From the IMG/VR virus record IMGVR_UViG_2617270988_000009: DNA of 33,205 nt; one strand, given 5' to 3'. Shown piece after piece: positions 25,668-25,853 of the stretch (position 1 is its first letter; each line of letters begins with the position of its first letter). Both the position numbers and the translations under genes were made by a program. The stretch is from a virus. Lineage: Duplodnaviria > Heunggongvirae > Uroviricota > Caudoviricetes. The notes under the pieces were generated by a model. It had not been told where the DNA came from, searched no databases, and worked only from the letters and a program-made list of their open reading frames with translations.

Positions 25668-25853
25668 ATGTCATCGAAAAACCGGACCCGCAGAACCACA
25701 ACCCGCAATATCCGTTTCCCCAATCACATGATTGAACAGATCAACATCGCCCTTGAGCATAAAGGGTCCGGTAACTTTTCAGCGTGGGTTATTGAAGCCT
25801 GCAGAAGAAGGCTGTCAACAGAGCGTTCGGGTATGAATTACATAATTAAGTAA
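25668..25853 (+). CDS. DUF3950 / YlcI-like small protein (ribbon-helix-helix-like), 61 aa
   Basis: Closely resembles the recalled E. coli prophage protein YlcI; paralog of the ORF at 1881..2078. Confidence 0.65.
   Translation: MSSKNRTRRTTTRNIRFPNHMIEQINIALEHKGSGNFSAWVIEACRRRLSTERSGMNYIIK

Follow-up and report, generated by a model that had tools for sequence, protein, structure and literature searches.

Why should a phage satellite and a lambdoid prophage on one stretch of DNA each carry a gene for the same kind of small protein, and what might these proteins do? The question is raised by a 33,205-nucleotide stretch from the virus record IMGVR_UViG_2617270988_000009, analysed at its full length and referred to here as the window, whose DNA is 97-99% identical to Escherichia coli genomes. 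A preliminary description had reported two plus-strand open reading frames (ORFs) in it, one of 61 amino acids (aa) at 25668-25853 in the prophage and one of 65 aa at 1881-2078 in the satellite, as paralogous DUF3950-like regulators reused by distinct elements and perhaps engaged in cross-talk. Both ORFs are present at these positions and on this strand, each closed by a stop codon, and both are real genes of the YlcI/YnfO family. The product of the satellite copy is probably a repressor of the satellite early operon that also limits its own synthesis, as suggested by a conserved set of palindromes upstream of the gene.

Pairwise alignment of the two proteins (BLASTP with compositional adjustment) returns 24/57 identities (42%), 67% positives and a single 4-residue gap at E=5e-17, so that their likeness lies well beyond composition, which alone is refuted as its cause. 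The motif previously read from the pair withstood this comparison in its elements, as MSS.N, NIRFP, I..I, NFSAWV and AC.R.L are all invariant between the two, but not in its spacing, which overlooked a 4-residue insertion in the 65-aa protein. Profile searches bear out the assignment to DUF3950, with both proteins passing curated cut-offs: Pfam PF13132 (DUF3950) scores 70.9 bits for the 61-aa phage-type protein and 28.3 bits for the 65-aa satellite-type protein (cut-off 25), while NCBIfam NF041551 (YlcI_YnfO_N) scores 35 and 59 bits, respectively (cut-off 30). Both also match PHROG 949, annotated as 'unknown function', at E=2e-32 for the phage-type and E=1.4e-27 for the satellite-type protein.

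A search for the family (YlcI/YnfO, equivalent to DUF3950 and PHROG 949) recovered 1158 clusters falling into two subfamilies, which are told apart by the 4-residue insertion. The phage-type consensus, ...TTTRNIRFPNxMIEQINIALExKGSGNFSAWVIEACRRRL, lacks it, and the satellite-type consensus, ...KSAKKNIRFPHELIEEIDASVEREKxxNPSANFSAWVLDACGRKLK, contains it. Eleven residues are invariant in 32 members including both window proteins (I15, R16, F17, P18, N36, F37, S38, W40, V41, A44 and C45), with I22 likewise invariant across both subfamilies, and give both window proteins, each about 60 aa long, the motif IRFP ... NFSxWV..AC. The two copies are old paralogues whose subfamily follows the type of element, phage or satellite. 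The reuse of one family by distinct elements is thus a real distribution, although not a discovery: homologous genes in E. coli genomes are already named 'YlcI/YnfO family protein' by the NCBI pipeline, and the paralogy is therefore not new. A literature search on DUF3950, YlcI and YnfO found no functional study.

Structure prediction gave comparable models for both proteins. The AlphaFold2 model of the satellite-type protein has an extended N-terminus followed by helices at residues 19-32 and 41-63 (predicted local distance difference test score, pLDDT, 78.4), and that of the phage-type protein an extended N-terminus with helices at 19-32 and 37-55 (pLDDT 63.8). This is the two-helix arrangement of ribbon-helix-helix (Arc/MetJ/CopG) proteins, with no strand assigned in either monomer; in that class a short strand at the N-terminus precedes two tightly connected helices, and the strands of an obligate dimer pair up to read DNA. 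The best structural matches are ribbon-helix-helix antitoxins (ParD, the CopG-family protein CopA_SO, HicB, and MazE of mycobacteria); Foldseek comparisons to the PDB have E>3 throughout and are therefore taken qualitatively only. At the sequence level, the ribbon-helix-helix part of HicB (HicB_lk_antitox) is weakly matched by 10 of 32 family members and is the only recurrent weak Pfam match, Pfam Arc matches none of the family members, and the family profile finds no match among PDB sequences even at E<=10. An hhalign comparison with Arc places NIRFP on NLRWP, the strand with which Arc reads DNA, in a weak alignment (probability 8%). A ribbon-helix-helix fold for the YlcI/YnfO family is highly credible, and the earlier suggestion that both proteins are small regulators holds up well: by predicted fold and structural matches, both very probably bind DNA.

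The satellite-type gene sits between the AlpA gene, with the integrase, on one side and an Icd-like gene on the other. The 205 bp between the Icd-like start codon (1675, minus strand) and the ATG of the regulator (1881, plus strand) contain all three window matches to the palindrome TGTGCGCACA, within 80 bp. The first, O1 (TGTGCGCACA, 1774-1783), lies at the predicted minus-strand start site of the icd-like operon, a position conserved in other elements. The second, O2 (TGTGCGCACA, 1797-1806), lies in the spacer of the minus-strand promoter and abuts its -35 box. The third, O3 (1844-1853), reads TGTGCGCCCA, with one mismatch, and overlaps the end of the -10 box in the predicted promoter of the regulator.

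Two divergent promoters are predicted around these sites. That of the icd-like/replication operon (1785-1812, minus strand) combines the -35 box TTGACA (1812-1807), a 16-nt spacer that holds O2, and the -10-like box TTTGAT (1790-1785); read from sequence, the former is perfect and the latter weak, and the TTGAC box beside O2 is conserved across elements. A consensus scan places the putative promoter of the satellite-type gene at 1816-1844 on the plus strand (TTAACA at 1816-1821, 17 nt, TATTGT at 1839-1844), with O3 starting at the last base of the TATTGT box. Promoter-like matches in this region are not above chance, and the plus-strand call therefore rests on position and on a conserved TATAGT/TATTGT box. 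The 1881 ATG is preceded by a good Shine-Dalgarno sequence, and a terminator-like hairpin of 10 pairs (2088-2114, plus strand) lies directly 3' of the gene.

The arrangement recurs well beyond the window. In a comparative set of 80 loci, drawn from a scan of one genome per species, satellite-type loci repeat the order integrase (minus), alpA (minus), regulator (plus) in Klebsiella, Rahnella, Xenorhabdus, Pantoea, Serratia, Pectobacterium, Brenneria, Proteus, Morganella, Enterobacter, Gilliamella and Orbus. About 30 elements from about a dozen genera carry three like sites at approximately -107, -84 and -37 from the regulator ATG, the last being the equivalent of O3. The middle site always abuts GTCAA, which is the TTGAC -35 box on the opposite strand, and the third follows a TATAGT/TATTGT box. 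The site sequence is consistent within an element and different between elements, and includes TGTGCGCACA, TGTTTAAACA, GGTGCACAnACACC, TGTCCGYACA, GTGTGnACCCAC and GGTGCGGCCACAC. At a limit of <=2 total mismatches, the three-site layout is found in 37% of real loci and in 0 of ~2150 flank-shuffled controls. Phage-type loci do not have it, scoring 6-7 mismatches, near the shuffled mean of 7.8.

Which protein would bind these sites? The operator sequence tracks two regulator residues, at -3 and -1 before IRFP, to a degree that 0 of 5000 permutations reach: residues K/N pair with TGTGCGCACA, Y or F/G with TGTTTAAACA, T/G with GGTGCAnAnACAC, K/H with GTGTGnACCCAC and R/D with TGTCCGYACA. In Arc, these are the positions that read DNA. 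AlpA behaves differently, as the window and two further loci (L061 and L081) share the same operator and arm, yet their AlpA proteins are only 35% identical, and in another locus (L060) a different operator goes with a 61%-identical AlpA. Likeness in AlpA thus fails to predict the operator class, and AlpA was rejected as the operator-binding protein on these grounds. Because the palindrome varies with the N-terminal arm of the small protein and not with AlpA, the satellite copy is probably an autoregulated repressor.

The module is present in EcCICFT073, the model phage-inducible chromosomal island (PICI) of Gram-negative bacteria, in which a 59-aa gene (C_RS30120) is accompanied by GGTGTGGCCCAC twice and by a third, degenerate copy, TGTCCCCCACC. 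An EcCIEDL933-type island in E. coli O55:H7 RM12579 has a different gene at the same position, encoding a 57-aa protein (MSTPLEKRSPPYQMRLPEDF..., 3239-3473 of locus L083) that matches PHROG 228, 'Arc-like repressor', at E=1.5e-6 and has its own pair of ATGGTAATTACCAT palindromes. The Arc-like gene itself is unannotated in the O55:H7 genome, where only an opposite-strand pseudogene is called.

The best explanation, and in our judgement a reasonably likely one, is that the two genes encode ribbon-helix-helix paralogues of the YlcI/YnfO family of which the satellite copy is an autoregulated repressor of the satellite early operon; it builds on homology, family membership, the predicted fold, the three-site layout, the conservation of that layout and its co-variation with the N-terminal arm. 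Under this explanation, dimers of the 1881-2078 protein would bind the three copies of TGTGCGCACA. With O2 (spacer) and O1 (start site) occupied, the promoter that serves the icd-like, replication and packaging genes would be blocked and the satellite kept silent, and binding at O3 over its own -10 box would allow the protein to limit its own synthesis. Induction may then come from AlpA-driven transcription running from alpA through a long antisense ORF and across the repressor gene and operators, so that transcription together with translation of the long ORF would override the repressor module. Such a read-through override is suggested by P4, whose eta ORF is built alike, is translationally coupled to vis and, when translated, prevents termination across the immunity region (PMC10111431).

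Several points weigh against a repressor switch of this kind. Three TGTGCGCACA sites in 33 kb are not unusual, since >=3 occurred in 20 of 100 shuffles; because the site count alone is not significant, the argument draws on how the sites cluster and on their conservation in other elements. Since a regulator gene and its operators are adjacent and inherited together, independence is overstated by the permutation test, and the register of the operator 10-mers in the arm/operator test was set by hand. Upstream of the phage-type gene, in the window and in lambda, no repeated palindromes common to the contexts were found, and no target of the phage copy was found. The long antisense ORF through which induction may run is missing from about half of the satellite-type loci. 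We infer DNA binding, repression, the promoter positions and the induction route alike. AlpA expression is sufficient to induce EcCICFT073, and because AlpA alone can do so, a repressor is not strictly required for induction; whether Gram-negative PICIs have a global repressor is described as unclear (PMC6092414). Finally, the -10 box of the icd-like operon (TTTGAT) is weak, and the sites could therefore serve an activator.

This last point belongs to a broader alternative, in which the palindromes are bound by another protein (AlpA, a further satellite protein or a host factor) and the small protein is instead an antitoxin-like partner of a neighbouring ORF or a regulator of host genes. A perfect -35 box with a weak -10 box, as at the icd-like operon promoter, is often seen in activator-dependent promoters, and experiments have shown AlpA to activate the operon that lies downstream of the switch (PMC6092414). 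Yet the operators follow the arm of the regulator and not AlpA similarity, O1 at a start site and O2 in a spacer occupy the positions of a repressor rather than an activator, and the O55:H7 allele at the same place is an Arc-like repressor with palindromes of its own.

The antitoxin version of this alternative draws on the fact that many ribbon-helix-helix proteins are antitoxins and that a small conserved ORF follows the regulator in three islands. In the window this ORF (2136-2321, plus strand, 61 aa) lies downstream of the regulator on the same strand, is itself followed by a strong terminator-like hairpin (2398-2417), and carries a FALE(D/Q)FLK motif that recurs in its positional counterparts in EcCICFT073 and the O55:H7 island. 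It has no Pfam, NCBIfam, PHROG or PADLOC family match, and thus no match to a toxin or defence family. It is also the sole same-strand neighbour of the regulator, from which it is parted by the terminator-like hairpin at 2088-2114, unlike a type II toxin-antitoxin pair. A toxin-antitoxin or defence reading was rejected, as the neighbouring small ORFs match nothing in PADLOC, Pfam, NCBIfam or PHROGs. We regard a different operator-binding protein, with an antitoxin or host-directed role for the small one, as unlikely.

The long antisense ORF raises the further question of whether the satellite-type ORF is a gene at all. A 388-codon minus-strand ORF (1472-2638) starts 58 nt after the alpA stop codon, crosses the regulator, the 61-aa ORF and the operators in antisense, and has the Icd-like gene as its final part; from stop to stop the frame has 407 codons (1472-2695). 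A stop-free antisense frame of 300-530 codons is found in 20 of ~38 satellite-type loci, in divergent elements and always in the same frame relation to the regulator, and the other two antisense frames in satellite loci contain 1-7 stops. Such constancy would fit an account in which the long ORF is the real gene and 1881-2078 its unexpressed by-product, and some annotations do call only the long ORF, or a pseudogene, at this place. The family also occurs in phages, however, where the antisense frame is just 37-94 codons. The regulator frame is better conserved than the antisense frame in 115 of 120 pairs. The small ORF is furnished with a Shine-Dalgarno sequence, a promoter-like site and a terminator-like hairpin of its own, and its 65-aa product gives a confident ribbon-helix-helix model. 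The long translation, by comparison, is cysteine-rich, unlike a folded protein over most of its length, and matches nothing except in its last 44 residues, in which the Icd-like domain lies (residues 340-383 of the 1472-2638 ORF, equivalent to residues 146-193 of P4 eta; 73.3 bits). Together these results make the by-product account very improbable.

The phage-type gene has a setting of its own. In the right part of the window, potB is followed by espK and the lambdoid prophage, whose tail, head, terminase, HNH and lysis genes are all on the minus strand; 25668-25853 is the sole plus-strand gene among these late genes. As had been noted earlier, an HNH endonuclease gene is its neighbour (25261-25626, minus strand; Pfam HNH and the annotation of homologous loci), reading in the opposite direction with start codons 41 bp apart. 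It is followed by the genes for the small (24408-24971, minus strand; Pfam Terminase_2) and large (22750-24411, minus strand; Pfam TerL_ATPase and TerL_nuclease) terminase subunits. The prophage copy has no partner gene on its strand. The orientation opposite to the late genes holds in all 40 matches listed (of 151 phage records).

Phage lambda, too, has the gene: its copy (48127-48303, minus strand) lies some 200 bp from the right cohesive end (cos) and is 81% identical to the window protein. It corresponds to a 64-aa ORF (NC_001416.1, 48109-48303, minus; 200-394 of locus L084) that is unannotated in the reference record. The lambda 'orf-64' was considered as the homologue and rejected, since that name belongs to another ORF, lambdap73, situated between Q and S. 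In the K-12 prophage DLP12 the order is rzpD, borD, ybcV, ybcW (plus), ylcI (minus), nohD (plus), and ybcW-ylcI is listed as a convergent overlapping transcript pair. The phage-type gene is a small gene conserved among lambdoid phages, lambda and the K-12 cryptic prophages DLP12 and Qin included; it opposes the late operon in direction and immediately precedes the packaging genes. Although the modules beside it are exchanged, the gene stays where the lysis and packaging modules meet, and stays antisense.

Could the two proteins nevertheless act on each other's elements, as had been proposed? In such cross-talk either protein would act on the sites of the other element, or mixed dimers would form, coupling the satellite to the state of its helper. 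Residues invariant across the subfamilies are those expected to build the protein core and to join the dimer, together with N14 and R16, two of three strand positions that face DNA, which makes mixed dimers or overlapping specificity conceivable. Lambda is a carrier of the phage-type copy and also a reported helper, switching on EcCICFT073 alpA via a phage factor (PMC6092414). Moreover, the phage-type gene runs against the late operon and in K-12 belongs to a convergent overlapping transcript pair, so that its product could fall at the onset of late transcription.

Other observations weigh against cross-talk. Allowing <=1 mismatch, TGTGCGCACA occurs nowhere in the window outside the satellite switch, and neither the prophage nor the lambda right end has a cluster of TGT-N4-ACA sites; cross-talk therefore has no support at the operator level. 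Phage-type loci are without the three-site layout, the N-terminal arm that tracks operator sequence differs between the two proteins (TRRTTTRN in the phage copy, NNKSAKKN in the satellite copy), and overall identity is just 42%. Published reporter assays, in addition, measured the helper signal as an increase in alpA expression (PMC6092414). The proposal thus went unsupported, the two copies having no common sites and different arms, and we consider cross-talk improbable. Equally doubtful is its most far-reaching form, in which the satellite protein would be the missing master repressor of Gram-negative PICIs with element-specific immunity operators, and the helper-phage paralogue, including that of lambda, would provide the induction signal through mixed dimers or operator competition.

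Comparison with known systems places the two genes among familiar arrangements without an exact counterpart. By curated cut-offs, YlcI of DLP12 and YnfO of Qin belong to the same family as both window proteins, and the prophage copy has the same size as YlcI, the same orientation relative to the late genes and the same position before the packaging genes that ylcI has before nohD. The neighbourhoods differ, with HNH and an HK97-type terminase in the window and a Nu1/NohD-type small terminase in DLP12. In P22, Arc and Mnt (immI) are small ribbon-helix-helix repressors whose operators overlap divergent promoters, and mnt is transcribed against the late operon, its repressor being made in the lysogen; the phage-type gene may be likened to mnt by position. 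The reading strand of Arc, NLRWP, follows an N-x-R-x-P pattern that resembles NIRFP here, although there is no significant sequence similarity. P22 immI differs in that it controls an antirepressor gene, of which no equivalent lies beside either window copy, and P22 has separate Arc and Mnt operators, unlike the three operators of one kind in the window switch.

The repressors Stl and Rpr of Gram-positive PICIs (the Staphylococcus aureus pathogenicity islands, SaPIs) are likewise encoded by a gene that diverges from the operon for excision, replication and packaging, the control region lying between the two (PMC6092414). They are unrelated to the window protein in size and family matches, and Stl is relieved by binding a helper-phage protein, whereas the inducing step of Gram-negative PICIs is AlpA expression (PMC6092414). 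In contrast to the stl/rpr arrangement, the satellite-type gene converges on int and alpA, is not co-oriented with int and lies inside the long antisense ORF. P4 resembles the window in the last respect: in both, a vis/alpA homologue is followed by a long ORF with a C-terminal Icd-like domain (eta in P4), and the eta ORF of P4 encloses the immunity determinant and an internal promoter (PMC10111431). The embedded determinant of P4 is the CI RNA, while that of the window is an antisense protein gene with DNA operators. Ribbon-helix-helix antitoxins (ParD, CopA_SO, HicB and MazE) are autoregulators that bind palindromes at their own promoters, as is proposed here for the satellite copy; unlike these, neither window copy has a toxin gene found beside it, and the typical C-terminal toxin-binding extension is missing, judged by length.

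The paralogy itself is ordinary; the novelty would lie in a ribbon-helix-helix immunity repressor placed antisense in the P4-eta-like read-through ORF of PICIs. No repressor role for Gram-negative PICIs was described in the literature searched, and a search on PICIs together with ribbon-helix-helix proteins or repressors found no functional study. If correct, the proposal would supply a repressor and an immunity specificity for Gram-negative PICIs, including EcCICFT073, in about 30 elements, and would give DUF3950 a function. Should the repressor role not hold, what remains is a pair of proteins from a family that is known but uncharacterised. The analysis also points to a conserved but unannotated lambda gene, some 200 bp away from cos, and to two genes, one sense and one antisense, that overlap completely in the manner of P4 eta.

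The satellite occupies only about 4.5 kb of the window (positions 1 to ~4500), which holds one end of the island. It encodes a tyrosine integrase (3249-4499, minus strand; Pfam) that adjoins roxA, alpA (Phage_AlpA, 2696-2884, minus strand; Pfam PF05930, 61.8 bits), the known activator of Gram-negative PICIs (PMC6092414), and a 67-aa Icd-like gene with Shine-Dalgarno sequence and ATG (1472-1675, minus strand; NCBIfam NF033153, 69.9 bits), which is the first gene of the minus-strand operon. A DUF4222 gene (281-580, minus strand; profile match), several small genes and the start of a gene for a RepA-type helicase complete this end, all on the minus strand. In 21 satellites, the stretch from O1 to the Icd-like start codon (approximately 1680-1745, minus strand) contains a conserved two-hairpin leader with compensatory changes in 10 of 15 predicted pairs, a Shine-Dalgarno sequence in the loop of the second hairpin and a conserved TCTAACCAC between the hairpins; the leader has no Rfam match.

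The island and the prophage are distinct elements, as originally stated, being separated by the chromosomal genes roxA, pepT, potA and potB. The island shares its roxA-side site and gene order with EcCICFT073, and it is small, with int, alpA and replication genes co-oriented on the minus strand and a specific attachment site beside roxA. By these sequence features the left element is a PICI-type phage satellite. The label 'P4-like' given to it earlier is apt insofar as AlpA is a homologue of P4 Vis and the eta-like ORF has an Icd-like end, but the element is of PICI type and has no P4-type CI RNA. Rfam searches for such an RNA (C4/IsrK) found none at the gathering threshold in the whole window and none at E<=1 in 1-4600, and P4-type RNA immunity was rejected for the satellite on that basis. 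In the 16 kb of relatives examined, psu, sid and delta were not found; these relatives have a RepA-type helicase or primase, and capsid genes.

In strain ESDR8, a relative with 97.7% identity goes on into genes for an HK97-type capsid, protease, portal and head closure, and by sequence the closest relatives have the layout of capsid-forming PICIs, the window ending before these genes. Capsid-forming PICIs bring capsid, protease, portal, connector and terminase genes of their own and have none for tails. EcCICFT073, at the same site, is without the full capsid-forming gene set. Helper-phage induction and transfer have been shown for the related EcCICFT073 and EcCIEDL933 (PMC6092414).

Two further features of the prophage were noted. 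At the right window edge, in the prophage late regulatory region (32698-33205, minus strand), a match to the small RNA STnc100 (132 bits) lies with three tRNA genes. At 17803-20549 on the minus strand, an ORF of 461 aa and its neighbour of 454 aa share 4 nt, at a place where a related prophage (L002) is annotated with a single frameshifted portal gene.

Family matches in Streptomyces, Pseudomonas, Bacteroidota, Firmicutes and candidate phyla would imply a wide host range, which was rejected as lambda DNA in assemblies: the 7 contigs checked (L005, L006, L007, L009, L012, L016 and L019) are 98.9-100% identical to the lambda right end. The loci counted as lambda DNA in unrelated taxa are L003-L029, L035-L038, L055 and L064. 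The foreign-taxon contigs are about 3.5 kb or 48.5 kb long, as with CP136411.1, a 3566-bp 'plasmid' of Arcanobacterium hippocoleae, which suggests leftover sequencing control DNA.

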